Positions 8,171 through 54,398 of a DNA stretch of 64,000 nt are shown one piece after another; position 1 is the stretch's first letter, and every line of letters starts with the position of its first letter. A model generated the notes under the pieces. It saw only the letters and a program-made list of their open reading frames with translations. It had not been told where the DNA came from and did no database searches. Source of the stretch: an uncultured Clostridia bacterium (GTDB lineage Bacteria; Bacillota; Clostridia; Christensenellales; UBA1242); contig CALVJT010000021.1 of NCBI GenBank assembly GCA_944332315.1, positions 73,568-137,567 of the forward strand, read 5' to 3'. The translations under genes were made by a program, and so were the position numbers.

Positions 8171-8231
8171 AATACAAAATACATTATATAGTGTATTCTA
8201 TTAATATAATACACTATATTAGGTGTATTAT
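8171..8231. repeat. Compound palindrome locus A (upstream of pnp)
   Basis: Half-sites are AATACAa 8171, AATACAt 8178, GTGTATT 8191, AATACAC 8208 and GTGTATT 8223. The last three are spaced N10 then N8. Confidence 0.85.
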
Positions 8232-8246
8232 GATAAGGAGCATTTT

Positions 8247-10337
8247 ATGGAGAAAAAGATTTTTGAAACAACATATGGTGGCAAAAAAGTTACGGCGGAA
8301 ATTGGTACATATGCTATGCAGGCTGATGGTTCTTGTTTAGTTAGATGCCAAGATACAGCAGTTTTAGTAAATGTAACAGTGGCTGATAAGCCTCGTGATG
8401 GGGTAGATTTTTTGCCTTTAAGTGTAGATTACGAGGAAAAGTTATATGCTGTTGGCAAAATCCCTGGGGGATACAAACGCAGGGAAGGCAGACCATCTGA
8501 CCAAGCAATTTTGGTGGCAAGGTTGATTGATAGACCTTTGAGGCCATTGTTCCCTAAAAAATTTTATAACGATATTTCTATTGTTGCTACTCCGCTATCT
8601 ATTGACCCCGATGTTGCGCCCGAAGCGCTTGCTATGATTGGTTCAAGCATTGCTTTATCAATTTCGTCTGCGCCATTTGAGGGGCCAACTGGAGCTGTCA
8701 ATATTGCATTAGTTAATGATGAATTTGTTATTAATCCTAATGATAATCAACGCGAAAATAGCAAGCTAAATTTAACTGTAAGTGGTACTCACGATGCTGT
8801 TTTGATGGTAGAGGCTGGTGCGCATTTTGTGGATGAGGACACTATGCTAAAAGCTATTATGTTTGCGCACGATGAAATAAAAAAACAGGTTGAGTTTCAG
8901 CAAGATATAATTAAAGTTTATCACAAAGATAAAAAACAGCCACTTGTTGAGGATGACATTGTAGTTCAAATTGAAAATGAAGTTGCAAGTTATGTTGACG
9001 AAAAACTAAATTATGTTCTAGATACTTTTGATAGGGCTGAAAGACAGGCGCGCGATAAGGCATTAAAAGAAAGCACCCTTAATTATTTTGAGCCCCAATA
9101 CCCTGAAATAGAAAACTTAAATAAGATTATTGATGCCACAATCTACTCTTTAACCAAAAGCAAAGTACGCAAAAATATTGTAGAAAAGGGTATTCGACTT
9201 GATGGGAGAAAGTTGGATGAAATTCGGCCTATTTGGTGTCAAGTTGGGTTGCTTCCTAGAGTTCATGGATCTGGCGTTTTTACTCGCGGTCAAACGCAGG
9301 TTTTGACTACTTGCACACTTGGGATGTTGAGCGAAATGCAACACATAGATGGATTAGAGGAGGAGGAAGAGGTAAAACGCTATATGCATCACTACAATAT
9401 GCCTCCTTATAGCACTGGAGAGGCTAAAATGTTAAAGAGCCCTGGTAGGCGCGAAATAGGCCACGGAGCTTTGGCGGAGAGAGCTTTGGAACCTGTACTG
9501 CCTAGTGAGGAGGAGTTTCCTTATTGCATAAGGACAGTTTCGGAGGTGTTGAGCTCTAACGGGTCGACTTCTCAAGCAAGCGTATGTGGTTCTACTCTTG
9601 CACTTATGGATGCTGGTGTTCCTATTCTATCACCGGTTGCAGGTATTGCTATGGGGCTGATTAAAGAGGGTGACCAAATTTTTGTATTGACCGATATTCA
9701 AGGCGAGGAAGATTTTTACGGAGACATGGATTTTAAGGTAGCTGGAACCGAAAAGGGTATAACTGCTATACAAATGGATATAAAAATAAAAGGCATAGAT
9801 GAAAACATTTTGAAAACTGCGCTACAAAAAGCAAAAATTGGTAGAATGTTTATTATGGATAAGATGCTACAAACTATAGATGCACCAAGAAAAGAGCTAT
9901 CCCCATATGCTCCTAAGATAGTTTCATTTAATATAGACCCTGATAAAATTAAAGATGTTATAGGTTCTGGCGGTAAAAATATAAATAAAATTATTGAAGA
10001 AACTAATGTAAAAATTGATATTGAGGACGACGGATTTGTTACTATTGGTGGAATGGATAAGGACAAAATACAACGCGCTAAAGAAATTATCGAAAGCATT
10101 GTAATGGAAATATGTGTTGGAAATGTTATGAATGGAGTAGTTGTAAGAACTAGTGATTTCGGCGCTTTTGTATCCTTATCTCCAATTAAGGAAGGACTAA
10201 TTCATATATCAAAGTTATCGGATAAACATATTGATAAAACCGAGGATGTTGTCAAAGTGGGGGATAAGGTGAAAGTTGAGGTGATAAAGATAGATAACCG
10301 CGGTCGCATAGATTTGAAGCTTATAAACAAATTATAA
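8247..10337 (+). CDS. pnp: Polynucleotide phosphorylase
   Basis: Two RNase PH domains, then KH (GSGGKNINKI) and S1 domains. SD AAGGAG at 8235-8240. Follows rpsO, as in most bacteria. Confidence 0.95.
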   Translation: MEKKIFETTYGGKKVTAEIGTYAMQADGSCLVRCQDTAVLVNVTVADKPRDGVDFLPLSVDYEEKLYAVGKIPGGYKRREGRPSDQAILVARLIDRPLRPLFPKKFYNDISIVATPLSIDPDVAPEALAMIGSSIALSISSAPFEGPTGAVNIALVNDEFVINPNDNQRENSKLNLTVSGTHDAVLMVEAGAHFVDEDTMLKAIMFAHDEIKKQVEFQQDIIKVYHKDKKQPLVEDDIVVQIENEVASYVDEKLNYVLDTFDRAERQARDKALKESTLNYFEPQYPEIENLNKIIDATIYSLTKSKVRKNIVEKGIRLDGRKLDEIRPIWCQVGLLPRVHGSGVFTRGQTQVLTTCTLGMLSEMQHIDGLEEEEEVKRYMHHYNMPPYSTGEAKMLKSPGRREIGHGALAERALEPVLPSEEEFPYCIRTVSEVLSSNGSTSQASVCGSTLALMDAGVPILSPVAGIAMGLIKEGDQIFVLTDIQGEEDFYGDMDFKVAGTEKGITAIQMDIKIKGIDENILKTALQKAKIGRMFIMDKMLQTIDAPRKELSPYAPKIVSFNIDPDKIKDVIGSGGKNINKIIEETNVKIDIEDDGFVTIGGMDKDKIQRAKEIIESIVMEICVGNVMNGVVVRTSDFGAFVSLSPIKEGLIHISKLSDKHIDKTEDVVKVGDKVKVEVIKIDNRGRIDLKLINKL

Positions 10338-10514
10338 AATTGTAGGGAATTCTATTCAAAATGTTGGGGCTTTTCTAATTGATAGGCAAGACCCTAAATT
10401 AATCGAATATGCACTCCAATATTGATTACAGAGTTTATTAAAATTTGATATCCATTTATTTATGTATGAAAAAAATAAAATTTGTAGCATATACATAAAT
10501 GAATGGAGTTTTTT

Positions 10515-11207
10515 ATGAAGTACAGTTTTTTTTCTAACATTTGCATATTCGGTATGTTACTTGCTTTGTTTTGCATAACATATGATAACAACATAAAAAG
10601 TGTTTTTAATCAAAATGATATAGAGCCGTATTATTGTGGCAACGCAAACAATGCTTATGTATCTTTAATGATAAATGTGTACTGGGGGAATGAGTTTATT
10701 GAACCTATGCTCGAGACATTGAGTAAAAATGGAGTAAAAACTACTTTTTTTGTTGGCGGTTCTTGGGCAAACAAATACCCTGAACTGCTAGAAAAAATAG
10801 TAGCGGGTGGGCACGAAATAGGTAATCACGGGTTTACTCATAAGGAGCAATCTAAACTAACCTATGAACAGAATTATAATGAAATTTATATGTGTCATGA
10901 AGTTGTAAAAAATTTGACTGGGATTGAAATGTCTTTGTTTGCGCCACCATCTGGTGATTTTAGCAATACTACTTTGCAGGTAGCAAATGCATTAAATTAT
11001 AAAACTATTATGTGGTCCAAAGATACTATTGATTGGAGAGATAAAAATACCGATTTAATTATAAAAAGGGCAACAAATAACCTAAAAAATGGAGATTTGA
11101 TTTTGATGCATCCCACTCAAAACACGCTAGAAGCCTTGCCAAGTATTATAAAATATTGCCAAGATAATGGGTTTACAATTACCACGGTTTCGAATTGTTT
11201 AAGCTAA
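10515..11207 (+). CDS. Polysaccharide deacetylase (NodB homology; YlxY/PdaB-like)
   Basis: N-terminal TM or signal segment. FFVGGSW...HEIGNHGFTH NodB motifs. Same position as B. subtilis ylxY, downstream of pnp. Confidence 0.8.
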   Translation: MKYSFFSNICIFGMLLALFCITYDNNIKSVFNQNDIEPYYCGNANNAYVSLMINVYWGNEFIEPMLETLSKNGVKTTFFVGGSWANKYPELLEKIVAGGHEIGNHGFTHKEQSKLTYEQNYNEIYMCHEVVKNLTGIEMSLFAPPSGDFSNTTLQVANALNYKTIMWSKDTIDWRDKNTDLIIKRATNNLKNGDLILMHPTQNTLEALPSIIKYCQDNGFTITTVSNCLS

Positions 11208-11225
11208 GTTCGGTTTAGCTACAAA

Positions 11226-11260
11226 AATAGACAAAGTTTGTTATAATTTTGTCTTTTTTG
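11226..11260 (+). terminator. Terminator after the deacetylase gene
   Basis: AGACAAA (11229-11235) pairs with TTTGTCT (11248-11254), followed by a T-run. Confidence 0.5.
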
Positions 11261-11341
11261 TTAATAAAACTTAATGTTTTTGTTGAATAATATTTATATT
11301 TGTGATATAATTACCTAAATTCAGTTAGTTAGGGAGTTTTT

Positions 11342-13984
11342 ATGAACAAAAAGATTTTAACTCGCGCTAATACAATGCCATTAATTCTGCTATTTGTATC
11401 CTTTTTGCTACTTATATGTATGGCATTTTCGATATTAGACTTGATAAATCATATTTTGTTAGGTTTATTCGGCGTGTGTGCGTACATTTTACTAATTTTA
11501 ATCATGGCTTGGAGTATTGCTAAAATAGCGGGATATAAAAACAAATTTTCCAAAAGTTTTGAAGTATCCTTAGTTATTATAGCATTATCTATGATGTTTA
11601 TAATACACCTTGCACTAACTAACGCCTCATACAATTTATCTTTTGTAGAATGTATGGAATATCCTTTTGGAACATTGACTCCAGCGGGAGCGATTTTTTC
11701 TTTCATATTGTATCCATTCAGGTTGCTTTTACCATTAGAGGCTGTTATTTGCTTATTTGTAATACTGATGATTATATTTTTCTGTATTTGCGTGGATAAG
11801 CAATTTCATTATAGACACTTAAAAGAAAATAACACATTTTTATCTACAAAAACCGAGAAAGTAAAAGTTAGCAAAAATTCGAACAAAACGCAAACTATGC
11901 GTGTACCTAATGCCACTATGGAAAAAAATAAAAATATGCCAACATTTATTTCAATGCCACTTACGTTAAATGCTAAAATAGAAAGAGAGGAGCAGGATAA
12001 AGTTACTGATTTGGTTGCGCCTACTCAACCTAAAAAAATTAATATAAAGAAAGAAATCGAAAACAAAAAGATATCTGTAAAGCCGGATCCGGCAATTTAT
12101 AGTGGCATAATAAATGCAGATGTATACAAGGGCGATACTACAACATTGCAAGATGCTATGGAATTTAACGAAGTAAAACCACTAAAACCACAAAAAATTT
12201 TGGTTAATGAAAGCGATGACAATCCCATCATCGGTAAACCGCAAACGATTTTGCGAGAAAATACATTCCACGACTATGACATTTCGCCAATATTGGATGT
12301 AAATGATGTAGCTAGGCAAGAGTTTATTGATGAAAAATTTGCAAGTATTTCCGAAACAAAGGAAAACGATGCTTTTGAAAAACTGGGATTAAATAAATCG
12401 GATAATTCATTTGTTGACAATATAGAACTTGATAATACAATTAATAAAAATTCGAATATAGATTCTATCATTGAGCCAATTAAAGAGCAAGAGCAACCTA
12501 AAAAAGAAGTTCCAAAACCTAAAAAACGCGCAAAATATGTAAGGCCACCTTTGGAATTATTGACAACCCAAAGCACTATTCCTACAATTTCGCAGGAAAA
12601 GTTTGAGGAAAAAGCACATACGATAGAGGAAAAGTTTGAGGAATTTAAGATTTCGGTAAAGTGCGTTGGTGTGACGCGCGGACCTGCTATTACTAGATAT
12701 GAGTTTGAGATGCCTCAAGGCGTTACAGTAAATAAAGTCTTGCAATATTCTAACGATATTTCTATGGTTCTTGAAAGCCGTAAAGCTATTAGAATTGAGG
12801 CACCAATACCTGGTAAAAACGCATTTGGTATTGAAGTTCCTAATGAAAAAGTCGATACAGTTGGTTTAAGAGACATTATCAATACAAAAGAGTTTAGAGA
12901 TGCAACATCGCCTTTGACTTTTGCCCTTGGTAAGGATATAACAAATAGGCCTATTGTAGCGGATGTAGCAAAGCTTGTGCATACACTTGTAGCGGGTTCT
13001 ACTGGTAGTGGTAAATCGGTATGTATGAACTCCATTATAATCTCGCTACTTTATAAAGCATCTCCTGCAGATGTCAGAATAATATTAATTGACCCTAAAT
13101 TTGTCGAGTTTAATATTTACGAGAATTTACCGCATCTGCTGTTGCCTAAAGTCATCACAGAGCCTGCACAGGCAGTTAGTGCCTTGGCGTGGGCGTGCGA
13201 GGAAATGGAAAGGCGCAATAGAGTGTTTGGACAATACTATGTTAGGAGCATCGATGAATTTAATGATTTGCAAGAAGTAAAAGATGGAACCATTGACAAA
13301 ATGTACAAAATTGTTATTATGGTCGATGAGTTGGCAGATTTAATGTTGAATGCTAGAAAGGACATTGAGGAAAAAATATTAAAACTAACTCAAAAAGCGC
13401 GCTCTAGTGGTATACACCTAATTTTGGCAACTCAAAGGCCATCCGTAGATATTATAACGGGTACCATTAAAGCCAACTTGCCATCAAGAATTGCCTTTTC
13501 GTTGACCAACTACAATGATAGTAAAACAATCATTGACCAAAGCGGGGCTGAAAAGCTACTTGGGCGGGGGGATATGCTATATAGTCCTATGGGCGGGGAA
13601 CCTATTCGTTTGCTTGGCCCGTTCATTTCGCAACAAGAAGTGGCATCCATTGTCAAATTTATTAAAGAACACAACCCTTGTGATTTTGATCCGGAGATTG
13701 AAAAATCTATTATGGTAGCAAAAACAAGTGAGGCTGGTTTTGGCGAAGCAACAGATGCTACAAAGGATGAATATTTTATTCCTGCGTTGCGCAATGCTAT
13801 TGAAACACAAATTTGTTCTACCTCTTCTATTCAAAGAAGATTTAGCATAGGCTACAATAGGGCGGCAAGAATTGTGGATGCAATGGAAAAAATGAATTAT
13901 ATTTCAAAAGCCGATGGCTCAAAGCCTCGTCAAATATTTATAACTATGGAAGAATTTTTAAGAGAATATGGAGATAAAGGTTAA
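11342..13984 (+). CDS. ftsK: DNA translocase FtsK/SpoIIIE
   Basis: N-terminal TM helices and a low-complexity linker. Walker A GSTGSGKS and Walker B MVDELADL. C-terminal gamma wHTH (IQRRFSIGYNRAARIVD). Confidence 0.92.
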   Translation: MNKKILTRANTMPLILLFVSFLLLICMAFSILDLINHILLGLFGVCAYILLILIMAWSIAKIAGYKNKFSKSFEVSLVIIALSMMFIIHLALTNASYNLSFVECMEYPFGTLTPAGAIFSFILYPFRLLLPLEAVICLFVILMIIFFCICVDKQFHYRHLKENNTFLSTKTEKVKVSKNSNKTQTMRVPNATMEKNKNMPTFISMPLTLNAKIEREEQDKVTDLVAPTQPKKINIKKEIENKKISVKPDPAIYSGIINADVYKGDTTTLQDAMEFNEVKPLKPQKILVNESDDNPIIGKPQTILRENTFHDYDISPILDVNDVARQEFIDEKFASISETKENDAFEKLGLNKSDNSFVDNIELDNTINKNSNIDSIIEPIKEQEQPKKEVPKPKKRAKYVRPPLELLTTQSTIPTISQEKFEEKAHTIEEKFEEFKISVKCVGVTRGPAITRYEFEMPQGVTVNKVLQYSNDISMVLESRKAIRIEAPIPGKNAFGIEVPNEKVDTVGLRDIINTKEFRDATSPLTFALGKDITNRPIVADVAKLVHTLVAGSTGSGKSVCMNSIIISLLYKASPADVRIILIDPKFVEFNIYENLPHLLLPKVITEPAQAVSALAWACEEMERRNRVFGQYYVRSIDEFNDLQEVKDGTIDKMYKIVIMVDELADLMLNARKDIEEKILKLTQKARSSGIHLILATQRPSVDIITGTIKANLPSRIAFSLTNYNDSKTIIDQSGAEKLLGRGDMLYSPMGGEPIRLLGPFISQQEVASIVKFIKEHNPCDFDPEIEKSIMVAKTSEAGFGEATDATKDEYFIPALRNAIETQICSTSSIQRRFSIGYNRAARIVDAMEKMNYISKADGSKPRQIFITMEEFLREYGDKG

Positions 13985-25113: not shown

Positions 25114-25142
25114 ATATTAAAAAAAGACCATTAAAGGTCTTT
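25114..25142 (-). terminator. Terminator after the PadR-like gene
   Basis: AAAGACC (25123-25129) pairs with GGTCTTT (25136-25142). A T-run follows on the minus strand. Confidence 0.5.
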
Positions 25143-26829
25143 ATTCTTCTCTAAAGGCTTTTAGTTGTAGAAGAAGTGATTTATATAAATAATCTATGTA
25201 TATAACTAATGATGCTACTATTGGCAATACAATAAATGGTAAAAAATCTATAATATTGGAGGAATTTAGTCCGCACAGTAAGTTAATTGAAATCGTCAAC
25301 AATACTATTACAGCAAAAATTATCGACCTAGGCAAAAGCTCCTTTTGCATATTATAATATCCTAATACTTTACTATGATTTTTGCCGGCTATAAATGCAT
25401 ATACAACTGGATATATAAGACCGACTGATAGAATGCCTATTATTAAATAGGATATAGATTGCAACTCTGTAAGAGATTCTTTGAACGCAAAGTAGCATAT
25501 AAACATTAAACCCAGTAGGGTGGCATAACTCATAATAGCTGTCAATAAATTTGTTTTATTTATGTAAACTCTGTGTGATTTTAGTTGAGATTGATTTTTT
25601 CTGTACTTTTGTACTACTATGCCACTATTTTCGCAATCCTCAATAAATTCTAGCAAAGTGACAGGGCGAACATATTCTTGTTCGACATCTTGAATTGCAT
25701 CATTTGCATTGCTAGAAGGGGTCCTATTAATTATAGAATTAAGTTTTTCGTATACAGTTTTTGAATCGTATTTGTTATAAAAATCATAATCGGATGAATA
25801 ATCGTATTTATTCTTTTGCCTTTTAAGGAAAATATTCGCTTTTAGATTATCATCTACATTGACCTTTTCTTTAAGCAGATACGAATCGACATTTTTTTGA
25901 TTATTCGAATTTACATCATCTATGTTAGGCTCACCGATATGAGCACTGGTAAAACTTTGATTTATCTCTTCATTGACCAAATTATTTTCATATAAATCAC
26001 TTTCATAAGAATACGATATTGGAGCTGTTGTACTTTTGTTGCTTACCATAGATAAGTAGTCATCTGCGTATTTGCCTTTAAGATTGGGGTCTAGCAATAT
26101 GCCTTTATCCGTTTGGCTATAAGTAGATGTTGAACTTGCATCAGAATAATTGGAATCTTTTTCGATCATATCGCCAAAAATTGTATCATAATCAATAGAA
26201 TCATCAATAATATCTTTATGCGTCAAAGTAGTAGGTTTATATAGTAGACTTGTTGAAGCATCTTGTGGTATAATTTCATCGTCTGATAAAAGGACAGCAT
26301 CTGTTTTATCGTAAACGAAAATATCATTGTTGGGTCTATTTTGTTCTTGATTATCTTGTTCAATTTTGTTTTCGTTTTGATTATTCATATAATCTAATAT
26401 AGAATAATTTTGGATTGAATCTTGTTCGGAGGCACGGGTAGGGGATGCTTGACTTGTTTCCTCTTTTAATCTTTGCGTATGCTCAATGGTATTAAAAAAA
26501 TCTGGCTGAATAGCTAATGTTGTAGATACATTTTTGCTGACATTTTCAAATTTCTTAAACTCATCGAAATTGTATGGGTGTTCCTCTATGTACTTGCGAC
26601 CTTTTTCGGTTAATGCACTATAACGCCTTTTGCCACCAATTTCACTATTTTCCCAATAGGATGTAATAAATCCATCAGATTCAAGTTTGTGTAGGTTGCT
26701 GTATAAACTAGGCAATTTTACATCCATTTGGCCATTGGTTAGATGCTTTATTTCTTTAATTATTTCTAGCCCATATTTGTTCCCGCTTTTTAAGGTGCTT
26801 AAAATAATGGCATTTAACTTTCCGCGCAT
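25141..26829 (-). CDS. PadR-family transcriptional regulator fused to a long low-complexity linker and a C-terminal 4-TM membrane anchor
   Basis: The N-terminal ~90 aa form a PadR wHTH (YGLEIIKEI...LYSNLHKLESDGFITSYW...RRYSALTEKGRKY). About 330 aa are N/D/S-rich, followed by four hydrophobic helices at the C-terminus. Confidence 0.7.
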   Translation of the reverse strand: MRGKLNAIILSTLKSGNKYGLEIIKEIKHLTNGQMDVKLPSLYSNLHKLESDGFITSYWENSEIGGKRRYSALTEKGRKYIEEHPYNFDEFKKFENVSKNVSTTLAIQPDFFNTIEHTQRLKEETSQASPTRASEQDSIQNYSILDYMNNQNENKIEQDNQEQNRPNNDIFVYDKTDAVLLSDDEIIPQDASTSLLYKPTTLTHKDIIDDSIDYDTIFGDMIEKDSNYSDASSTSTYSQTDKGILLDPNLKGKYADDYLSMVSNKSTTAPISYSYESDLYENNLVNEEINQSFTSAHIGEPNIDDVNSNNQKNVDSYLLKEKVNVDDNLKANIFLKRQKNKYDYSSDYDFYNKYDSKTVYEKLNSIINRTPSSNANDAIQDVEQEYVRPVTLLEFIEDCENSGIVVQKYRKNQSQLKSHRVYINKTNLLTAIMSYATLLGLMFICYFAFKESLTELQSISYLIIGILSVGLIYPVVYAFIAGKNHSKVLGYYNMQKELLPRSIIFAVIVLLTISINLLCGLNSSNIIDFLPFIVLPIVASLVIYIDYLYKSLLLQLKAFREE

Positions 26830-26850: not shown

Positions 26851-26879
26851 ATTTTACATTTTTTTGCAATTTTTGTCAA
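26851..26879 (-). promoter_or_regulatory. Putative promoter of the PadR-like gene
   Basis: On the minus strand: TTGACA (26874-26879), 17-nt spacer, TAAAAT (26851-26856). The leader carries the SD AAGAGG. Confidence 0.5.
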
Positions 26880-26906
26880 TAAAAAACAACATAATATAAA
26901 ATATTT

Positions 26907-26966
26907 TATAATACACAATAGATAGTGTATTATAAATATAAAATACCCTAAATATGGGGTATTCTA
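26907..26966. repeat. Compound palindrome locus B (divergent PadR / ygjP-like region)
   Basis: TATAATACAC-N8-GTGTATTATA (26907-26934), a 10-nt gap, then AATACCC-N8-GGGTATT (26942-26963). Unit centres are 32 bp apart. Confidence 0.85.
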
Positions 26967-26980: not shown

Positions 26981-27661
26981 ATGTTAATCAATTATATTCA
27001 ACGCACTGCAAGAAAAACCTTGGCTATAACAATAGATGATAAAGGAGAAGTTATAGTTAAAGCTCCTAAAAATATGAGTGATAAAGATATCTTTAAGTTT
27101 GTAAATTCTAAGCAAAAATGGATAGAGCAAAAAGTTAATTTTATTAAAACACAAAATGCTATGTTCAACGATTTATTTAACTATAATAGTGTTTTGTTTT
27201 GTGGTAAAAAGTATAATATTTTGCGCGATAGACACTCAAAAGATATAACACTTAAAGATGATTATTTAATTATTAAACCGCTATCCACATTGAAAAGGGA
27301 AGCTAAGCAAATTGAAAAATTTTTGAAAAACAAATGTATTGAAATAGTAGGGCAAAGGCTCAAATATTTTGCAAATATTATGCAACTTGAGCCCAATAAA
27401 GTAGTTTTGAACAATTCAAAACGCAAATGGGGCACATGTGATAGTGAAGGGGTGATTAGCTTTAATTGGAGGGTTATAATGCTTTCTCCGCAATTAATAG
27501 ATTATGTAGTGGTTCATGAGTTATCGCATTTGGTAGAAATGAATCATTCTCCTGCATTTTGGGCTATAGTTTCTGCTGTTTTGCCTAATGTTAAAAATCT
27601 TAGGCATACCTTAAAACAATGCAACTTTGTATTGCAACAATTCCGTGAATTGCCGGTTTAA
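26981..27661 (+). CDS. YgjP-like metal-dependent hydrolase (DUF45 / M48-like HExxH)
   Basis: HELSHLVEMNHSPAFW zinc motif. About 226 aa. SD AAGGAG at 26969-26974. The ORF-track start at 26954 lies inside the repeat. Confidence 0.8.
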   Translation: MLINYIQRTARKTLAITIDDKGEVIVKAPKNMSDKDIFKFVNSKQKWIEQKVNFIKTQNAMFNDLFNYNSVLFCGKKYNILRDRHSKDITLKDDYLIIKPLSTLKREAKQIEKFLKNKCIEIVGQRLKYFANIMQLEPNKVVLNNSKRKWGTCDSEGVISFNWRVIMLSPQLIDYVVVHELSHLVEMNHSPAFWAIVSAVLPNVKNLRHTLKQCNFVLQQFRELPV

Positions 27662-27754
27662 TTTCATTTTTAAGGGATAAAAATTGCATTTTTTTTTATA
27701 TAAGATTAAGGATTATTTGATTTTTAGAGTGGGGGTATAGTATAAAAAGCATAT

Positions 27755-27797
27755 CCACATCTATTCGCTAAAGACAACTTTAGCGAATAGATAGTGG
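27755..27797. other. Strong isolated hairpin (19-bp stem with one bulge, loop ACAA)
   Basis: CCACATCTATTCGCTAAAG (27755-27773) pairs with CTTTAGCGAATAGATaGTGG (27778-27797). No adjacent T-run on the plus strand. Confidence 0.6.
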
Positions 27798-28231
27798 TAA
27801 AAATGCAAGGAAAAGCCTTATTTTTTATTATTGCTTAATTTTTTATTTATTTGCTGTTTTTATATTTCATTCATATTTTAATTTTATAGTTTTTATAATA
27901 CTAATTTGTTTAATGTGTGTTCGCTTTTAGTTTAATTAACTTAAGCATTATTATTTATAATATTAGTGATGTATTTATTATTAAATAATTTTTTTTTATT
28001 ATTGAATAAAACCATTTATCATTAAAATTTATAATACATTATAATAGCATTAGAAAACTAAACAAAAAGCGCAAAAAAAACACAAAAATTACTCAAGAAT
28101 TGTTTTTGCATTATTTTAACTATTAATTAATAAACTGCGTTTTAGATTTAACATATAGCATTGTTAAGTTTGCAAAATATCATTTAATAGCAAATAAGCA
28201 AAATTACTATTTTATAATTATAGCCAAATTG

Positions 28232-28260
28232 TTGATTAATAAGTTAAATTTTGATATAAT
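28232..28260 (+). promoter_or_regulatory. Putative promoter of the recombinase gene; predicts a leaderless mRNA
   Basis: TTGATT (28232-28237), 17-nt spacer, TGaTATAAT (-10 at 28255-28260), then 6 nt to ATG 28267. No SD is present. Confidence 0.5.
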
Positions 28261-28266
28261 GTTTAC

Positions 28267-29337
28267 ATGGAAAAAAATGAATCATATGCAAAACAAAGAG
28301 ATGCAAAAAATATTTTGAAATTACGAGAAATGCGAAATCATTTGCCTACTTTTTGCGCAGAATTCTTTATTGGAATTGAAAACAATACTAGTGTGTTGAC
28401 TCGAATTGCTTATGCGCAAGATTTGCATGTTTTTTTTACATTTTTATCGAATGAGATACCAGAATTTGAAAGTAAAGATATAAGGCTATTTACCCTATCC
28501 GACTTAAACAAATTGACTGCAGAGCATATCGAACTATTTTTAGACTACTTAAATTTGTATTATATAGATGGCAAAAAATTTATCAATAATGATAAAGCAA
28601 AAGCAAGAAAATTGGCTACTATAAGAAGTTTACTTAAATATTTTTATAAAAAAGATAAAATTAGTCAAAATGTAGCTCAAAAAGTCGATATGCCTAAAAT
28701 TTATTCTAAAAATATTATACGATTAGAACAAAACGAAGTCCATAAACTGCTTGATATTGCCGATCGCGGAGATCTTGCATTGACTAGACAGCAAAAAGAT
28801 TTTCATAAACACACAAGGATACGCGATTTAGCAATACTTATGCTATTTTTAGGAACTGGTATTCGTATAAGTGAATTGGTGGGTATTAATATAAATGATA
28901 TTAACTTTGATAACAATTCGTTTGTTATTACGCGTAAAGGTGGCAATCAATACATTTTGTATTTCTCTGATGAGGTGGCAACCGCCCTACTAGATTATAA
29001 GCGAGTACGAGAACAAATTAAAGTAGCTAAAGATGAGGATACAAATGCATTTTTCCTCTCACTTCAAAATAAACGCATAACAACTAGAGCTGTACAAAAT
29101 TTAGTAAAAAAGTATAGTCGTATAGCCTCGCCACTTAAAAAGATATCACCACATAAATTAAGAAGTACCTATGGCACAAACTTATATCAACAAACACACG
29201 ATATTTACATAGTTGCAGATGTTTTAGGACACAAAGATGTTAATACTACTAAAAAACACTATGCGGCAATAAGCGAAAATATTAGAAAAGATGCATCTAC
29301 TCGAATTAAATTGAGGAGTGATGATACGGATGAATAA
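28267..29337 (+). CDS. Tyrosine site-specific recombinase (XerC/XerD-like)
   Basis: N-terminal SAM-like core-binding domain. Catalytic signature LGTGIRISEL (R), HKLRSTYGT (HxxR) and LGHKDVNTTKKHY (H...Y). Confidence 0.85.
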   Translation: MEKNESYAKQRDAKNILKLREMRNHLPTFCAEFFIGIENNTSVLTRIAYAQDLHVFFTFLSNEIPEFESKDIRLFTLSDLNKLTAEHIELFLDYLNLYYIDGKKFINNDKAKARKLATIRSLLKYFYKKDKISQNVAQKVDMPKIYSKNIIRLEQNEVHKLLDIADRGDLALTRQQKDFHKHTRIRDLAILMLFLGTGIRISELVGININDINFDNNSFVITRKGGNQYILYFSDEVATALLDYKRVREQIKVAKDEDTNAFFLSLQNKRITTRAVQNLVKKYSRIASPLKKISPHKLRSTYGTNLYQQTHDIYIVADVLGHKDVNTTKKHYAAISENIRKDASTRIKLRSDDTDE

Positions 29338-29554: not shown

Positions 29555-29566
29555 GAACAATTGTTT
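29555..29566. promoter_or_regulatory. LexA (SOS) box in the lexA promoter
   Basis: GAACAATTGTTT fits the Gram-positive GAAC-N4-GTT(C/T) operator and overlaps the -35 hexamer. Confidence 0.65.
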
Positions 29567-29593
29567 GACAAAAAAAAATCTATGTGCTATAAT
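29565..29593 (+). promoter_or_regulatory. lexA promoter
   Basis: TTGACA (29565-29570), 17-nt spacer, TGcTATAAT (-10 at 29588-29593). A 30-nt leader carries the SD AAGGAG. Confidence 0.65.
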
Positions 29594-29623: not shown

Positions 29624-30256
29624 ATGGCAAAAAATAATCAAAAAGTAGAAGATATGTTATCTTATATTGCAAACTATTCGCAAGAAAACGGATTCCCTCC
29701 TAGCATTAGAGAAATTCAAGATAAATTTAATTTTAAGTCTACATCAACCGTATCTTATTATTTAAGGAAATTGGAACAGCGTGGAGATTTAGTAAACAAA
29801 GGTAGAAAAAATCGCGCCCTATCGGTTGCCCCTCATTATTTTGAGGAACATCCAGAATATAAGGCAAAGATGTTAGATAAAGAATTTAATATGATACCTT
29901 TAGTTGGTAATGTAACCGCGGGTCAACCTATATTAGCGGAGGAAAATTTTGAGGAATCATTTTTTATTCCTACTAATTTATTTAGGGGTGATAACCTATT
30001 TATGTTAACTGTAAGCGGTGAAAGTATGATTGAGGCAGGAATTTACAATGGAGATAAAATAGTAGTAAGACAACAAAATACTGCTGAAAATGGCGAAATT
30101 ATAGTGGCGCTTATAGATAATTCTGCTACTGTTAAAACTTACTATAAAGAAAGCAACAGAATACGTTTACAACCAGAAAATTCTACTATGCAACCTATGT
30201 ACTTTGATAATATCACCATTTTAGGCAAAGTTGTAGGACTTATAAGAAAAATATAA
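29624..30256 (+). CDS. lexA: LexA repressor
   Basis: N-terminal wHTH, the Ala-Gly self-cleavage site (VTAGQP), and an S24 peptidase domain (SGESM ... K). Confidence 0.95.
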   Translation: MAKNNQKVEDMLSYIANYSQENGFPPSIREIQDKFNFKSTSTVSYYLRKLEQRGDLVNKGRKNRALSVAPHYFEEHPEYKAKMLDKEFNMIPLVGNVTAGQPILAEENFEESFFIPTNLFRGDNLFMLTVSGESMIEAGIYNGDKIVVRQQNTAENGEIIVALIDNSATVKTYYKESNRIRLQPENSTMQPMYFDNITILGKVVGLIRKI

Positions 30257-30311
30257 TACACTAAATATAGTGTATTATAAAAATAGAATACACTATTCTT
30301 GGTGTATTCTA
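30252..30311. repeat. Compound palindrome locus C (overlaps the lexA stop codon)
   Basis: TATAATACAC-N8-GTGTATTATA (30252-30279) and TAGAATACAC-N8-GTGTATTCTA (30284-30311). Centres are 32 bp apart, and a T-run follows the second unit. Confidence 0.9.
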
Positions 30312-30651
30312 TTTTTTATAGTCTCTATAATATTGTGTGGGTTAAGGTCTGAATTAATAACTTACTATATCCTATTTAATAACAAAGAACCTTTTTTTAT
30401 AGATTTTATGTTTTATAGATTTAATGTAAAATATGGGGGTGTATTTCCTAAATCAGCAACAACAATCCCCCTTCATTGATAATAAAGTCTTTATATGTAA
30501 AAATTAACTTTTGTAAATACAAAGTAATATGAGCTAACAATTTTTGTAATTTGCGTTCTATAACTAAATTTATGATAAACTATTAATGTTAAAAAGTTTT
30601 CATATATAACAATTAGCAAGTAAACTGCTTTATTATTTGAGCAAATACATT

Positions 30652-42583: not shown

Positions 42584-43687
42584 ATGAAAGTTTGTGCAGT
42601 TATTTGTGAATTAAATCCACCACACAATGGGCATCAATTTCTTGTAGAAAACATCCGCAAAGTGACAAATTGCGATTTTGTAGTAGCAATTATGGGTGGC
42701 AATTTTGTGCAACGAGGAGAACCTGCCATTTATGAGTATAGGTTACGCGCAAAAATGGCTATAAATATTGGCTTTGATGCGGTTATATATATGCCACTTG
42801 TTTATACGCTAAATTCGGCTGATGATTTTGCTTATAATGGCGTATCGATTGCTCATTTACTTAAAGTTGATTATTTAGCTTTTGGAGCACATTTAGATTT
42901 AGATAAATTATATGAAATAGAAAATTTATCAAATCAATATGAATTTAGAGTATTATTAAAGGAGAATCTACAAAATGGTATATCCTACGCAAGCGCATTT
43001 GGCAAAGCAATAAAAGATATGTTGAATATAGAAATGTCATCAAATGATATTTTAGCACTTCAATATATTGCAAGCATAAAGCAACAGTCATTAGGTATCA
43101 GGCCAATCATAATTAAGCGCGAACTTGATGTTTCCGCTACACAACTACGACAAAAAATTTTAGCCAATGATATTGAATCTATAAAACCCTTTGTAAACAC
43201 AAAAAATTTTGAATTGATAAAAAAAACCTTGCCTTTTAATTATAATAAGTTCAACGAATTTTTATATGGCAACATAACAACAAAAAGCGTTGATGAGTTA
43301 AAAGCTATTAAGGGGATGAAAGAGGGACTTGAAAACAAAATATATGAAAGCAATGCTACAAGTTTTTTAGAGTTTAATAAATTAATAAAGACAAAAAGGT
43401 ACACGCAAACATTCCTTAATAGGCTATACCTAAATATTCTATTTAACATAAAACGCGATTGTGATTTGAAATTGCCCTACCTAAAATTAGTTGCTTTTAG
43501 TGATGACGCAATTATAAAAGAACTGAATACAAAATGTTCTTTACCGCTGCTAACAACCCTTAAAGATAAAAGGCTTTTAAGTGCAAAAAGTCTATATCTA
43601 TACGACACAATGGCAAGCAAAATTTATAATATAAGTACAAATTCAAAAGATTTTCTTTTCCCTTATCATAAACTAATAAAATACTAA
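42584..43687 (+). CDS. tmcAL: tRNA(Met) cytidine acetate ligase (YlbM/UPF0348 nucleotidyltransferase)
   Basis: N-terminal ICELNPPHNGHQFL (HxGH-type nucleotidyltransferase motif) and family-typical length. Confidence 0.7.
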   Translation: MKVCAVICELNPPHNGHQFLVENIRKVTNCDFVVAIMGGNFVQRGEPAIYEYRLRAKMAINIGFDAVIYMPLVYTLNSADDFAYNGVSIAHLLKVDYLAFGAHLDLDKLYEIENLSNQYEFRVLLKENLQNGISYASAFGKAIKDMLNIEMSSNDILALQYIASIKQQSLGIRPIIIKRELDVSATQLRQKILANDIESIKPFVNTKNFELIKKTLPFNYNKFNEFLYGNITTKSVDELKAIKGMKEGLENKIYESNATSFLEFNKLIKTKRYTQTFLNRLYLNILFNIKRDCDLKLPYLKLVAFSDDAIIKELNTKCSLPLLTTLKDKRLLSAKSLYLYDTMASKIYNISTNSKDFLFPYHKLIKY

Positions 43688-43729
43688 ATATGGTGTATTC
43701 TAATATTAGAATACACCATTTAATGTATT
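43683..43729. repeat. Compound palindrome locus D (overlaps the tmcAL stop codon)
   Basis: Perfect 28-bp palindrome TGGTGTATTCTAAT/ATTAGAATACACCA (43691-43718), i.e. GTGTATT-N10-AATACAC, flanked by degenerate half-sites. Confidence 0.85.
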
Positions 43730-43963
43730 ATGCTTTTAAGGTTCTTTCTAATTTTATAGTGGTGTAGTAAGCAATAATTCAAGCTTTTCTAAGCCCCCCA
43801 CGAATATATAAGATCCTTTTAATACTGTTTTGTGATGATATTATAAATGCTGTTTTTGTTATTGTGCTTGTGCACTAAGTGCAAGTATTTTTTGTTTGCA
43901 TTGGCTAAATTGATATTTGCCCCGCCCTATTAAATATCTATTAAATGCCTTGTTGTTTGTTTA

Positions 43964-47659: not shown

Positions 47660-49735
47660 ATGAACAGAAAGTTAGATGCATTTTTTTATCCCAAATCTAT
47701 TGCGGTTGTTGGCGCCTCAGAAAAAGCTGATACTGTAGGCTACAGGTTGCTAGATAACATAAAAAGTTGTGGCTATGAAGGAGCTATTTACCCTATCAAC
47801 CCTAAATACACCGAATGTCAGGGGCTACAATGCTTTGCTCGCGTTCAGGACCTTGATGAAATACCCAATTTAGTAATGGTAGCAATTCCTGCAAAGGCTG
47901 TTTTGCAGAATGTTAAAGAATGCGCTGAGTTTGGGGTAAAAAATTTTTATATCATTTCATCTGGTTTTGGAGAACTAGGAGCCGAGGGTAAAAAAATTGA
48001 AAAGGAAATATCCGATTTTGCTAAGGCAAACAGCATTAATATCATTGGGCCAAATACCATAGGCTTTGTAAACAATGATATAAATTTGAATGCTAATTTT
48101 TCGCAATCAACTTGCAAAAATGGCAATGCAGTTTTAATAAGCCAATCGGGTGCACTTACAAGCGGCATAATGAATATACTTGAGGATTCTCAGGTTGGGT
48201 TAAAATTTGGCATAAGCATAGGTAATGCTTGTGATGTAAATGTAGCAGACTTGATTAAATATTTTAGCAAAGATAAAGATATTGACCAAATATTGTTGTA
48301 TCTAGAATCTGTCCCCCAACCTGAATTATTTATGGAAGCTTGCAGGGAAAACAATAAAAAAATTATTTGCGTAAAATCTGGCAGGAGTGCCCGCGGGGCT
48401 GTTGCCGCTTCCTCACATACTGGAGCTTTGGCAAGTTCGGATACAATTGTCGATGCTTTTTTGAAACAGTGCGGAGTTATACGCGCAACAAGCATTGCCG
48501 AGATGGTGGATATAGCTACAATTTTTTGTACTGTCAAAAATTTATCCCCTGCCCAAAATGTTGTTGTAATTACTAATGCGGGTGGCCCTGCTATACTCAC
48601 TGTAGATGCATTGAGCAATCTTGGAATCAATTTATATGAATTTACCGATGAGGAAAAATCTTATATGCATTCATATCTACAAAGTCAAGCTTCCGTCAAA
48701 AACCCTGTAGATATGGTGGCCTCAGCTTCTGTAGATGACTATAAAAAGACACTCGAATTTTGTATTCAAAATGAAAAGATTGATGCTATAATTTGTATTC
48801 ATTTATACATTATGGGTACTAAGTCAAGCGAAATTGCAAGCTTAATTGACGAATTAAAAGCAAAGCACCCTAGCAAAATGATTGCAAGTGTATTTATAAC
48901 ACATCTAAATGAAATGGATGAAATTAAAAAGTATGTAAAATATATTCCCATTTTTGATTCTGGTGAAAGTGCAGCTCAAGCCATTAATTTAGCAAGTAAA
49001 ACTTTTATAAAAAATAAAAGTAAAGTAGAAAAGTTACGCAACAAAAATATTGAAAGAATATTAGAGGCAGTAAAGGCAGATAAAAGGAATTTGCTAACTA
49101 CCTACGAATCGCTCCAAGTACTAAAAGAACTTGAACTTCCGCTTGTAAAGTTTGGCCTAGTTAAAGACCCACAGTCAGCAAAAAATGTGGCAAATCAAAT
49201 TGGGTACCCTATTGCCATAAAAATTACATCTAAAACTATAACGCATAAGAGTGATGTAGGCGGGGTTAAAGTTGGAATACAAAATGATAAAGAACTTGTT
49301 CAGGCAATGGAAGAAATTAAAAATAGTTTACAACGCCACAATTGTTTAGATGGGTTGGATGGATTTTTGATACAGGAGATGAAGGCTTCTAATAGAGAAT
49401 TTGTTTACGGTATTGTAGACGATAGCCAATTTGGAAAATGCTCCATGTTTGGGCTCGGTGGCATTTTTGTCGAAACTCTTAAAGATGTTTGTTTTAGAGT
49501 TTTGCCAGTAGGCAGAGATGAGATTTTTGAGCAAATACAGAGCCTAAAAACATCTAAATTGCTTGGCAATGTCAGGAATTTGCCTTGTGCAAATCTAAAT
49601 CAACTTGTGGATACTATGGTCAAAATAAATAATTTTGCTATTAATTATGATATAAAGGAATTAGACCTTAATCCTATTTTAATAGATGATAAACTTGGCA
49701 ACATAGCTTTAATTGACGCTAGAATAAAAATATAG
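47660..49735 (+). CDS. ADP-forming acetyl-CoA synthetase / acyl-CoA synthetase (NDP-forming), fused alpha-beta
   Basis: N-terminal CoA-binding domain (PKSIAVVGAS), a succinyl-CoA-ligase-like domain with SHTGALA (phospho-His loop), and a C-terminal ATP-grasp. Confidence 0.85.
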   Translation: MNRKLDAFFYPKSIAVVGASEKADTVGYRLLDNIKSCGYEGAIYPINPKYTECQGLQCFARVQDLDEIPNLVMVAIPAKAVLQNVKECAEFGVKNFYIISSGFGELGAEGKKIEKEISDFAKANSINIIGPNTIGFVNNDINLNANFSQSTCKNGNAVLISQSGALTSGIMNILEDSQVGLKFGISIGNACDVNVADLIKYFSKDKDIDQILLYLESVPQPELFMEACRENNKKIICVKSGRSARGAVAASSHTGALASSDTIVDAFLKQCGVIRATSIAEMVDIATIFCTVKNLSPAQNVVVITNAGGPAILTVDALSNLGINLYEFTDEEKSYMHSYLQSQASVKNPVDMVASASVDDYKKTLEFCIQNEKIDAIICIHLYIMGTKSSEIASLIDELKAKHPSKMIASVFITHLNEMDEIKKYVKYIPIFDSGESAAQAINLASKTFIKNKSKVEKLRNKNIERILEAVKADKRNLLTTYESLQVLKELELPLVKFGLVKDPQSAKNVANQIGYPIAIKITSKTITHKSDVGGVKVGIQNDKELVQAMEEIKNSLQRHNCLDGLDGFLIQEMKASNREFVYGIVDDSQFGKCSMFGLGGIFVETLKDVCFRVLPVGRDEIFEQIQSLKTSKLLGNVRNLPCANLNQLVDTMVKINNFAINYDIKELDLNPILIDDKLGNIALIDARIKI

Positions 49736-49789
49736 AATACACCACATATGGTGTATTCTATTTTTATAATACATTATATTTAGTATTCT
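49733..49789. repeat. Compound palindrome locus E (overlaps the acyl-CoA synthetase stop codon)
   Basis: TAGAATACACCA-cata-TGGTGTATTCTA (49733-49760), followed by a T-run. After 10 nt comes a degenerate second unit, AATACAT-N8-GTATT (49768-49787). Confidence 0.9.
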
Positions 49790-49799
49790 ATATTTTTTG

Positions 49800-50065: not shown

Positions 50066-50551
50066 TTATGCATTATCTTTATTTTCGTTAGCTTTTGTTT
50101 CTGGTTTCATTTTAAGGAACTCAAACAAATGCTCTACATTGTTCCTTTCAAATTCTAACACCTTGTTCGCCAACCCTATTATTTCCTCATCCGCTTCATC
50201 ATAATTAGCAACCGCTTTAACTAAATCAATAATACCCATCATGGTGCCTACAAGGAGCATTTCTGCTATGTGTTGTGTACTTGAGGAGGAAAGCAGATTG
50301 AGTTTTACAGACATCCATACCTGCGTTTTTTGTATAAAATTGTTATCTTTAAGGTTAATATCTTTAGAATTTGCTATCATTGCACATTCTTTTTCGAAAA
50401 CATAATATTGGCTTGTCTCCTTGCTCAATTCTAGTGTTATTTCCTTTAATTTTATATTGGATAGGACATTTTCTATAGATTGAGTTCCTACCCTTAGGTT
50501 TTTATAAATCTCATTCAATAATTCTAAATTGTCATCTTTTTTAACTTCCAT
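50066..50551 (-). CDS. Hypothetical protein (predicted all-helical)
   Basis: 161-aa ORF with the SD AAGGAGAG. No family recognised. Confidence 0.5.
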   Translation of the reverse strand: MEVKKDDNLELLNEIYKNLRVGTQSIENVLSNIKLKEITLELSKETSQYYVFEKECAMIANSKDINLKDNNFIQKTQVWMSVKLNLLSSSSTQHIAEMLLVGTMMGIIDLVKAVANYDEADEEIIGLANKVLEFERNNVEHLFEFLKMKPETKANENKDNA

Positions 50552-50590
50552 AATATGTCTCTCCTTAAGGGTATTATTTGCAAAATAAAT

Positions 50591-50623
50591 AAAAAAATCG
50601 CCAATTAAAGTTGGAGATTTTTT
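50591..50623 (-). terminator. Terminator after the radical-SAM-linked gene (symmetrical A-tract / stem / T-tract)
   Basis: AAATCGCCAA pairs with TTGGAGATTT with one mismatch, flanked by A7 and T6 runs. Confidence 0.45.
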
Positions 50624-50740
50624 CCAATTATGTGTACCAATGATTGATTTACATTTTTGAAAATATGTTACAAAATTCGCTAATTAGCATTGAGCTATGC
50701 GTCAACTTATTAACTTTATATTGCCCAAATTATATAATTA

Positions 50741-51346
50741 TTAATTAAACAAAAGAGATTCTATATCTACTAAATAATCATTTACTTTTTTATAGAGTGC
50801 AATTTTATTAATACTTTTTATTTCATATCCATATTGGTGTATGATATCAGCAATTTTTGACGGTTTAAGGTTAGCTTTTTGTCCGCAAGCAATTGTGCAT
50901 TGTAATATATTGTTATCCTTAGTTTGTATAGAATAAATTTTATTGCTAAATTCGCTTTGCCCTTTTATCACTTCCAATAACTGCGCATCAAATTTTGTAG
51001 TAGTAACAAATTCATATTGGGCATAATCTATTAAATCATAAAAATTGGGCTTTTGTTCAATCAATTTTACCAGACTTACCTCTAGCCCACTAGGGACATT
51101 TTTATTATATGATATCTTAAAGTTTTGAGTATCAGTGTAATCAGTTATTATGTACATATATTCGCACTGGCTTTGTATTCCTAAAGAAGTTGGCGGACTA
51201 AAATACAAAAGTTCGTGAGGATTAAAGCCTTGCGAGTAGCTAATATTTATTTTAGCTCTTTTTAGTGTTTGATTTATAACATCTCTACAATTCAAATAAG
51301 AGTTGTAGGTAAAAACACCACTTTTATTGAATTTTATTAATAACAC
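50741..51346 (-). CDS. Radical SAM-linked protein (TIGR03936/DUF2344-like)
   Basis: KINISYSQGFNPHELLYFSPPTSLG core. GTG 51346 is preceded by GGAGGA at a 7-nt spacing. The ORF-track TTG start at 51361 is also possible. Overlaps the upstream gene. Confidence 0.7.
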   Translation of the reverse strand: MLLIKFNKSGVFTYNSYLNCRDVINQTLKRAKINISYSQGFNPHELLYFSPPTSLGIQSQCEYMYIITDYTDTQNFKISYNKNVPSGLEVSLVKLIEQKPNFYDLIDYAQYEFVTTTKFDAQLLEVIKGQSEFSNKIYSIQTKDNNILQCTIACGQKANLKPSKIADIIHQYGYEIKSINKIALYKKVNDYLVDIESLLFN

Positions 51347-53108: not shown

Positions 53109-53174
53109 AATTTATCCTTTTGAATTAAATTTATATTTTTAATCGAAAATCATATAATAAAGTAAGAGGTTTAT

Positions 53175-54206
53175 ATGAATATAGTTTTAACTGGTGGCGG
53201 AACTGCTGGGCACATAATTCCTAATCTTGCGCTTATAGATGAACTAAAACAATATTTTGATAAAATTTATTATATTGGAAGCGATAAGGATAACGAAAAA
53301 AAACTTGTTGAAAATTATGGCATTCCGTATTATCCCATATCTACGCCTAAATTGATTAGAAAATTTACAACAAAAAATTTTTGTATACCCTTTCTACTTA
53401 TAAAAAGTATTAAATCTTGTAAAAAACTGTTACAAAAGCTAAAGCCAGATTTAGTCTTTTCTAAAGGCGGGTATGTATCTTTACCAGTTGTAATAGCTGC
53501 CCATAGATTAGGAATAAAGGTTGTTGTGCACGAATCTGATACATCAATGGGTTTAGCTAACAGGATATGTAGTAGATTTAGCAATAAAGTTTGCACTACA
53601 TTTCCTATTTACAAAAATAAGACTAAATACATTTGTACTGGAGCTCCCATACGCAAAGAATTTTTCCACCCAAGTAAAAAAGAGTATTTCAAAAATTCTA
53701 GATCGACAATTTTATTTGTTGGGGGCAGTCAAGGTGCTACAACCATCAATAATTTTGTATATGACAATTTAGATACATTGACAAAAAAATATAATGTTAT
53801 ACACATTTGTGGAACAAATAAACTAATTCCTAAAGAAAATCCAAATTATATTCAAATGGAATTTTGCGATGAAATGCCTACCTTAATAAATAGTTGTGAT
53901 TTGGTCATTACGAGAGGAGGCTCCAATGCCCTTTTTGAAATACTGGCTGTTGGAAAACCTATGATAATAGTACCGCTTTCCAAAAAAGAATCTAGAGGCG
54001 AACAAATAGAAAATGCCAACTTTTTTAAGCAACATAACTTAGCAACTACAATGAATAGTTTAGAAATAAATGCTTTACTACACAATATCGATACTCAACT
54101 ACAAAATCATAATAAAATTAAATCATTGCAAAATTCATTTATTTCAAATGCTGGCAGTAAAAATGTTGTAGATGTTATTATAAATACCATTAAAACTAAT
54201 AAATAA
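53175..54206 (+). CDS. murG: UDP-GlcNAc:undecaprenyl-PP-MurNAc-pentapeptide GlcNAc transferase
   Basis: N-terminal GGGTAGH motif, GT28 family length, and GGSQGA. Confidence 0.9.
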   Translation: MNIVLTGGGTAGHIIPNLALIDELKQYFDKIYYIGSDKDNEKKLVENYGIPYYPISTPKLIRKFTTKNFCIPFLLIKSIKSCKKLLQKLKPDLVFSKGGYVSLPVVIAAHRLGIKVVVHESDTSMGLANRICSRFSNKVCTTFPIYKNKTKYICTGAPIRKEFFHPSKKEYFKNSRSTILFVGGSQGATTINNFVYDNLDTLTKKYNVIHICGTNKLIPKENPNYIQMEFCDEMPTLINSCDLVITRGGSNALFEILAVGKPMIIVPLSKKESRGEQIENANFFKQHNLATTMNSLEINALLHNIDTQLQNHNKIKSLQNSFISNAGSKNVVDVIINTIKTNK

Positions 54207-54346
54207 ACAAATGTCTATAGTTTAATAATTTACTAATAATATTCATTTTGTTAACTATTATAAATTTTAATTCTATAATCAAATCCTCTTTAGGAGGTGC
54301 AACTAACTTAGAATATAAACAAATAAATAACTATATATGATATTTT

Positions 54347-54398
54347 ATTTTACTAAATATGGTGTATTATACTTGGATAATACACCATATTTAGTATT
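54347..54398. repeat. Compound palindrome locus F (between convergent murG and the Sel1-repeat gene)
   Basis: A 16-bp stem: AAATATGGTGTATTAT (54355-54370), loop acttgg, then ATAATACACCATATTT (54377-54392). This is GTGTATT-N10-AATACAC with degenerate outer half-sites at N8. Confidence 0.85.

Follow-up and report, generated by a model that had tools for sequence, protein, structure and literature searches.

The 64,000-nt stretch analysed here (the window), from a genome bin of an uncultured lineage of gut Clostridia recovered from human-gut metagenomes, contains six doublet palindromic elements of 58-60 nt each, read directly at loci designated A to F. The elements are a small family of a 58-bp module that is low in copy number, conserved in position between species and clustered around the replication terminus. 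At the level of sequence they agree with operators of NrdR, currently described as a repressor specific to ribonucleotide reductase (RNR) genes with about three sites per genome, on every criterion, and each is an NrdR-type operator pair with extra constraints. We tentatively propose, with a little less than even confidence, that they are NrdR operator pairs recruited to genes other than nrd genes, and that they also form hairpins, which would act as terminators between convergent genes.

All copies fit the 60-nt frame TAKAATACAC-N8-GTGTATTMTA-N4-TAKAATACAC-N8-GTGTATTMTA, in which the two inner arms are the best conserved and the outer arms frequently read AAATAC and GTATTT. The single unit AATACAC-N8-GTGTATT, allowing at most two mismatches, has nine matches in the window against 0.45 expected from dinucleotide shuffles (0 of 100 shuffles reached nine). 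Pairs of units phased at 31-33 bp number three at two or fewer mismatches and five at three or fewer, and no phased tandem pair arose in 100 dinucleotide-shuffled sequences, a result that upholds the repeat family claimed in an earlier, sequence-only reading of this DNA. The half-sites taken alone are about twofold over-represented, an excess due to the elements themselves. An nhmmer profile built from the six elements recovers just those six in the window, with E-values of 1e-12 to 3e-14; they are doublets throughout, and single units were never found with this profile. Intergenic DNA makes up 9.5% of the window and contains all six. Across 31 aligned elements there is not one insertion or deletion. 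The earlier description of the spacer N8 as TAAATAT(A/G) in four units and of the outer flank as TATAAT or TAGAAT was borne out on reading the loci. The 31-bp spacing that it gave for locus A is 32 bp in register, the shorter value arising because the left arm is degenerate (AAAATAC), and the degenerate seventh copy that it placed at 2966-3004, within the spacer upstream of spoVG, is not recovered by the six-element profile. Rfam and tRNA scans of the window gave no matches, and the literature searched (for the half-site strings, NrdR chromatin immunoprecipitation sequencing and regulon expansion) held no description of such an element family.

NrdR is present in 77% of bacterial genomes (PMC13584703). 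Its site comprises two 16-bp boxes in which C4, A6, A8, T9, T11 and G13 are highly conserved, joined by a linker of 15-16 bp (or one helical turn more) whose sequence is irrelevant to binding; binding needs C4 and G13 8 bp apart in both boxes, with at least 63% AT between them, and NrdRs recognise each other's sites across phyla (PMC13584703, PMC12051234, PMC9110341). The elements likewise consist of two 16-bp boxes with AT-rich centres that match the NrdR consensus acaCwAtATaTwGtgt. Among 48 units from the window and eight related genomes, the box consensus is A(C/T)AC-nAwATaTn-GTGT, and the conserved NrdR positions are kept in 43 (C4), 42 (A6), 44 (A8), 45 (T9), 46 (T11) and 47 (G13) units; neither the N8 positions nor the outer halves of the relatives' units had been used in finding those units. 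All 31 aligned elements share a linker length of 16 bp, which sets the box centres 32 bp apart. The critical binding rules, which were derived from experiments, are passed by 55 of 62 boxes, 24 of 31 elements and five of the six window elements. The second box of element B reads ACCC...GGGT, an A3C/T14G variant that binds NrdR normally (PMC13584703). With the six key positions and the linker so consistently kept, the likeness to NrdR boxes is stronger than was visible to the sequence-only reading, and the two 16-mers that it had singled out (26913-26928 and 30258-30273) are correctly positioned. NrdR is favoured as the binding protein because motif detail and spacing both match, and none of the other known regulator motifs considered fits. 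The published regular expression for NrdR box pairs (PMC12051234) has 12 matches in the window (shuffled sequence gives 4.2 +/- 2.1), and only five fall on elements A, D and F. The expression is not stringent enough for DNA as AT-rich as this and was left out as evidence.

Two of the window copies lie in 5' leaders. Element A (8173-8232), with boxes ATACATTATATAGTGT and ACACTATATTAGGTGT and the 16-bp linker, was identified by direct reading, profile and box rules. It lies past a canonical rpsO terminator (8033-8060) and ends 3 nt short of the ribosome-binding site of pnp (8247-10337, plus strand), which encodes polynucleotide phosphorylase (Pfam RNase_PH, PNPase, KH and S1 domains). Element B (26907-26966), identified in the same three ways, has boxes ACACAATAGATAGTGT and ACCCTAAATATGGGGT and lies between a PadR-like gene on the minus strand (25141-26829) and a YgjP-like metallohydrolase gene directly downstream on the plus strand (26981-27661; Pfam PF01863, E 1e-54). 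A consensus scan predicts two back-to-back promoters here (26851-26902) that have a single -35 region in common (TTGTCAA, used on both strands). The plus-strand promoter, TTGTCA-18-TAAAAT (26873-26902), would read into element B and the YgjP-like gene, and the minus-strand promoter, TTGACA-17-TGTAAAAT (26879-26851), would serve the PadR-like gene. Both promoter blocks are kept in seven species, the form on the element B side being TTGTCA-17/18-TAtAAa. Element B begins about 5 nt past the conserved -10 and ends just before the ribosome-binding site, an operator-like placement that supports the NrdR reading: as in NrdR operators, the boxes begin just past the promoter -10. Three element loci stand just before a ribosome-binding site, namely pnp and the YgjP-like gene in the window and der in relatives, and the elements at pnp and der abut that site in every species compared. 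The -10-like hexamer TAKAAT, which varies at its third base only, has no usable -35 or extended -10 at the right distance for an internal sigma-70 promoter.

The other four window copies are found between convergent 3' ends; the sequence-only reading had placed four of the six loci at gene 3' ends. Element C (30252-30311), the most canonical copy, lies in the convergent lexA/miaA spacer, overlaps the lexA stop codon and is preceded by an A-run and followed by a T-run. Element D (43675-43734) lies where a HIGH_NTase1 gene and a lipoprotein-like gene converge, between their 3' ends, and is predicted to form a single long hairpin. Element E (49733-49792) occupies the entire 64-nt spacer between the stop codons of a convergent ADP-forming acyl-CoA synthetase gene and small-protein gene, with A and T runs on either side. 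Element F (54344-54403) lies in the spacer where murG converges with a Sel1-repeat gene and is a near-perfect palindrome with a 20-bp stem.

An exact scan with the central 24-mer across 185,579 species genomes returned 21 stretches. Seventeen are true four-half-site elements, located in eight related genome bins at one to five exact copies per genome; the other four are lone palindromes in unrelated phyla. Of the 17, eleven occupy positions that correspond by orthology to A, B, C or F in the window and three precede der, the remainder being at other 3' ends; the copies outside the window loci are at der, yunB, rpe and an ABC-transporter locus. Further copies, outside the 24-mer selection, are present at the orthologous B and E positions. 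These positions have been kept over genus- to family-level divergence, with identities between species of 77-81% for PNPase, about 66% for MurG and 40-61% for the PadR-like protein, and with G+C contents of 24% to 47% in the related loci that were fetched and compared with the window (labelled L022, L071, L074, L076 and so on). At rpsO-pnp the element A core GTGTATTCTATTnnTATAATACAC is invariant in five species; the rpsO terminator next to it differs in sequence in each lineage and retains its hairpin. Element B was found in all seven species aligned and element C in four (the window, L022, L074 and L076), L071 being without it; element E has an ortholog in L023, and element F has orthologs in L014, L023 and L024. 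The last of these loci carries an extra element (3933-3992) between minD and mreB-like orthologs, where the window counterpart (57867-58221) has a lone GTGTATT at 58124 and no full element, which is evidence for occasional gain or loss of copies. As judged from these alignments, the pattern across species is one of purifying selection on sequence at fixed sites, not of recent mobility. Scans of JGI metagenomes and IMG/VR with the central 24-mer returned almost only chance single palindromes, with no new loci of this lineage and no nrd context. One related locus (L008, approximately 3010-3140) has a run of N between two identical copies of element A; the palindrome probably broke the scaffolding at this point, suggesting that genome bins under-assemble elements of this kind.

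A skew flip together with a change in gene strand indicates that the window extends across the replication terminus. The GC skew at third codon positions (GC3 skew) changes from about +0.19 to about -0.04, independently of gene strand, with best fits placing the switch at 28-35 kb; adding a term for this switch halves the residual. Genes lie mainly on the plus strand to about 20 kb, on both strands from about 20 to 30 kb and mainly on the minus strand past 30.3 kb. Cross-species conservation identifies a candidate dif site at 27761-27790, an 11-8-11 palindrome reading CTATTCGCTAA-AGACAACT-TTAGCGAATAG, which is identical, asymmetric centre included, in five other species, making six with the window. 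In relatives it is found at 5386-5415 in L022, 8691 in L071, 4787 in L074 and 8319 in L076, always between the YgjP-like and XerS-like genes. The latter (28267-29337, plus strand) encodes a tyrosine recombinase whose best NCBIfam match is XerS (E 8e-52, below the curated cut-off), and its synteny is conserved in relatives; an FtsK gene is present at 11342-13984. The palindrome probably serves this Clostridia lineage as dif, in an Xer system that has a single recombinase. A search of the window for a dif of the B. subtilis type gave no convincing match. The candidate is surrounded by an unusually long, very AT-rich non-coding stretch of 605 bp (27662-28266), which is poorly conserved in L022 apart from dif. 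The 10-8-10 units of the elements were themselves considered as Xer-binding or dif sites and ruled out, a different and conserved single-copy 11-8-11 site being the dif candidate.

Relative to the dif candidate, elements A to F lie at -19.6, -0.8, +2.5, +15.9, +22.0 and +26.6 kb. One relative has all five of its exact copies on a single 244-kb contig, and another has three of four in the region orthologous to the window. The density of about one element per 10 kb given by the sequence-only reading is accordingly correct locally and does not extend to the genome, since it reflects a local cluster gathered around the dif candidate at the terminus. A mirror polarity of strong and weak units, as in a fork trap, is present and was dropped, with a chance expectation of about 30% and only four informative loci.

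In the mechanism that we propose, NrdR would be the binding protein and its binding the selected function. At the YgjP-like gene, pnp and der, bound NrdR would repress or block transcription when deoxynucleoside triphosphates (dNTPs) are plentiful, which would bring genes for RNA turnover, nucleotide handling and ribosome assembly under NrdR. Transcription through the convergent copies would yield a stable hairpin; A/T runs flank most of these copies, which are therefore probably bidirectional terminators as well, and NrdR bound there would be a decoy or roadblock. Several observations weigh against this proposal. Its defining context is absent, because neither an nrd gene nor nrdR is present in the window or in about 30 related loci: annotation of the window proteins agrees with the sequence-only reading that the window has no nrd gene, and no relevant match came from searching all fetched loci for signature motifs of NrdR, ATP-cone and glycyl-radical proteins. 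Nor is any of the 17 exact-pattern matches in the eight related genomes at an nrd gene, so the extended arms are probably not simply the NrdR specificity of this lineage. In Proteobacteria a normal NrdR regulon has a mean of about 3.4 sites per genome (PMC5343134), whereas six elements lie within 46 kb here, a density far above that of such a regulon, as had been noted earlier; clustering around the terminus is likewise not predicted by a regulon. Most copies are at convergent 3' ends, where there is no obvious target for a repressor, and one window element, E, fails the critical rules, its second box lacking C4. The elements also show more conservation than NrdR needs. Their arms are conserved to 10 bp (TAKAATACAC and GTGTATTMTA), and the linker is conserved at 12 of its 16 positions, leaving only the central N4 free, with this linker almost wholly invariant across species at pnp and der; neither feature is seen or needed in real NrdR sites. 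Finally, the dyad symmetry exceeds what the boxes require, the whole element being one long palindrome.

Some of this excess could reflect a role in RNA. Folds of -15 to -30 kcal/mol are predicted on either strand, B and C forming two hairpins of 10-12 bp and A, D, E and F one long hairpin of 20-25 bp. The two N8 spacers of an element complement each other at 74 of the 124 free positions (53 expected; 0 of 20,000 permutations reached 74), with partly compensatory changes between units; complementarity within one unit is at chance level. A-runs before and T-runs after the element are found at C, E and their orthologs, with weaker ones at D and F, and the 5' copies A and B have none. A terminator scan of the window flags D and the second unit of B (B2).

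These properties raise the possibility that the elements are RNA features only, namely hairpins that act between convergent genes as bidirectional intrinsic terminators and as stabilisers of 3' ends, and that serve near the 5' end for stabilisation or processing, for example as RNase III substrates, at pnp, the YgjP-like gene and der, with no sequence-specific DNA-binding protein involved. The stable folds, the A/T runs confined to convergent copies, the flagged terminators and the inter-unit complementarity are all consistent with this, and E. coli pnp is itself autoregulated through a leader hairpin cleaved by RNase III. C, E and their orthologs in particular resemble bidirectional intrinsic terminators, as symmetric hairpins with an upstream A-tract and a downstream T-tract. 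Such terminators, however, have locus-specific, covarying stems, whereas the elements share one sequence, and it is sequence rather than structure that is conserved: the stems are invariant across loci and genera, while the adjacent rpsO terminator keeps its structure with a completely changed sequence. Whole-structure covariation is not significant for either fold (for the long hairpin, 201 of 500 and 60 of 500 shuffles reach the observed values), and the M/K arm position shows no covariation. The stems moreover contain few G-C pairs, in contrast to the G+C-rich terminators elsewhere in this genome, and the same element stands in 5' leaders with no T-tract. We therefore consider a purely RNA-based explanation unlikely; the bidirectional-terminator reading offered earlier is plausible for the convergent copies and leaves the invariant sequence unexplained. 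A somewhat better candidate, still improbable in our judgement, is that some other DNA-binding protein, specific to this lineage, uses the elements as its operators, the PadR-like protein encoded 78 bp from element B being the obvious choice; one dimer would occupy each 28-bp palindrome, with two dimers three helical turns apart. In this protein of 562 amino acids, an LmrR-like winged helix is followed by a long linker, rich in Asn, Asp and Ser and containing several short invariant motifs, and by about four transmembrane helices at the C-terminus; its closest solved structures are LmrR-type PadR proteins. Its gene is divergent from element B in every species examined, which is the usual arrangement of a PadR regulator and its operator, and is always beside the ygjP-dif-xerS segment. 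The family is tiny and lineage-restricted (32 clusters among 5.8 billion proteins), as is the extended element, and a winged-helix domain that is nearly invariant across the lineage fits an invariant motif. The winged helix could also account for the 10-bp arms, with contacts in the major groove at ACAC and a wing on the AT-rich flank, and the 4-8-4 dyad is common to PadR operators. PadR-family operators, however, read ATGT-N8-ACAT, the opposite half-site orientation to the ACAC-N8-GTGT of the elements, and no ATGT-N8-ACAT motif is present in the element B spacer. Element B also lies upstream of the -35 of the PadR-like gene rather than over its promoter, the elements are doubled at 32 bp with many copies far from that gene, and the detailed match to the NrdR consensus together with the 16-bp linker would have to be coincidental.

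The clustering itself could instead be the primary property. The elements might be structural sites of a terminus domain, analogous to matS/MatP in E. coli, Ter/RTP in B. subtilis or XerD-binding sites, that organise, anchor or insulate the dif region. Like those systems they are a palindromic multi-copy family around dif, confined in the window to -19.6 to +26.6 kb of the dif-like site and close to the GC3 skew flip, with copies in relatives enriched in the orthologous region. Elements B and C bracket the ygjP-dif-xerS-lexA segment in four species, and a candidate binder, the lineage-specific, membrane-anchored, predicted DNA-binding protein, is encoded beside one element and 0.9 kb from dif; tus and rtp similarly sit beside their own sites. 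Against this, the elements have no motif in common with those families, no MatP, RTP or Tus homology was found, and the true dif-like site here is a different sequence. The elements are all intergenic and in exact register with ribosome-binding sites, promoters and gene ends, which a purely structural site would not need, and they are nearly symmetric, unlike polar fork traps. The copies at der, yunB, rpe and the ABC-transporter locus cannot be placed relative to dif, and the argument comes from one region of one genome. We give this explanation only a small chance, and an equally small one to a combination of the two ideas, in which a terminus-domain family flanking dif would be bound by a nucleotide-sensing protein, either NrdR or a protein of the same specificity. 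Least probable of all, in our view, is a selfish repeat resembling repetitive extragenic palindromic (REP) doublets (REPINs) or miniature inverted-repeat transposable elements (MITEs), moved by a RAYT or IS200-type transposase, whose likeness to NrdR sites would be incidental or ancestral. The doublet palindrome, the long hairpin and the symmetry of the whole element are indeed typical of REPINs of Enterobacteria and Pseudomonas, which are extragenic inverted doublets able to fold as one hairpin. The copies, all extragenic, are found preferentially at 3' ends and in convergent spacers, with possible side effects as terminators or mRNA stabilisers, the conserved linker suggests a module copied whole rather than assembled at each site, and there is some gain and loss (C missing in L071, an extra copy in L024). 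The amplified REP/MITE-like repeat suggested by the sequence-only reading is nevertheless contradicted by a maximum of five exact copies per relative, 11 of 17 of them at orthologous loci across genera, and by their concentration in one chromosomal region. No single-unit remnants are present in the window, no target-site duplications or GTAG-type 5' motif were seen, and no transposase or RAYT is encoded among the window proteins scanned (Pfam, NCBIfam) or read by eye, or among the genes checked around the related loci. The elements differ from REPINs, too, in matching a transcription-factor operator.

Returning to NrdR operator pairs as the preferred explanation, box pairs fixed at pnp, der, the YgjP-like gene and convergent gene ends would change the picture of NrdR as an RNR-specific regulator. 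Either the NrdR regulon would have expanded well past dNTP synthesis, or a different system would have taken up this DNA geometry. The clustering further raises the question of whether a dedicated family of sites marks the terminus region in Clostridia. If a terminus-domain family bound by NrdR did exist, it would tie dATP/ATP status, and hence the progress of replication, to the terminus region. The sites might then be a decoy that depends on copy number and doubles only at the completion of replication; they might insulate the surroundings of dif or form a roadblock there; or they might be an anchor together with the membrane-bound PadR-like protein encoded next to dif. No counterpart of MatP/matS is known in Firmicutes, so terminus organisation of this sort would be new. 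Apart from the elements, the analysis provides a clear dif/XerS-like module for an uncultured gut lineage.

The gene content of the window is housekeeping only, and a few smaller features were observed. The string CTCTATAATATT(T)GTGTG...GGG is present in two copies (1236-1253 and approximately 30323-30340), each in a convergent spacer; the second stands between element C, which it directly follows, and a hairpin with a T-run. This string may be a small-RNA promoter. A 14-bp tandem duplication, TTTATAGGCTCTAT, lies just past element C in L003 and L004 (alignment columns 100-114) and is absent from the window, occurring in some strains of the same species only. Within the lexA promoter, a LexA-box-like sequence, AGAACAATTGTTTG (approximately 29555-29575), overlaps the consensus -35 (TTGACA) and represents ordinary SOS autoregulation.

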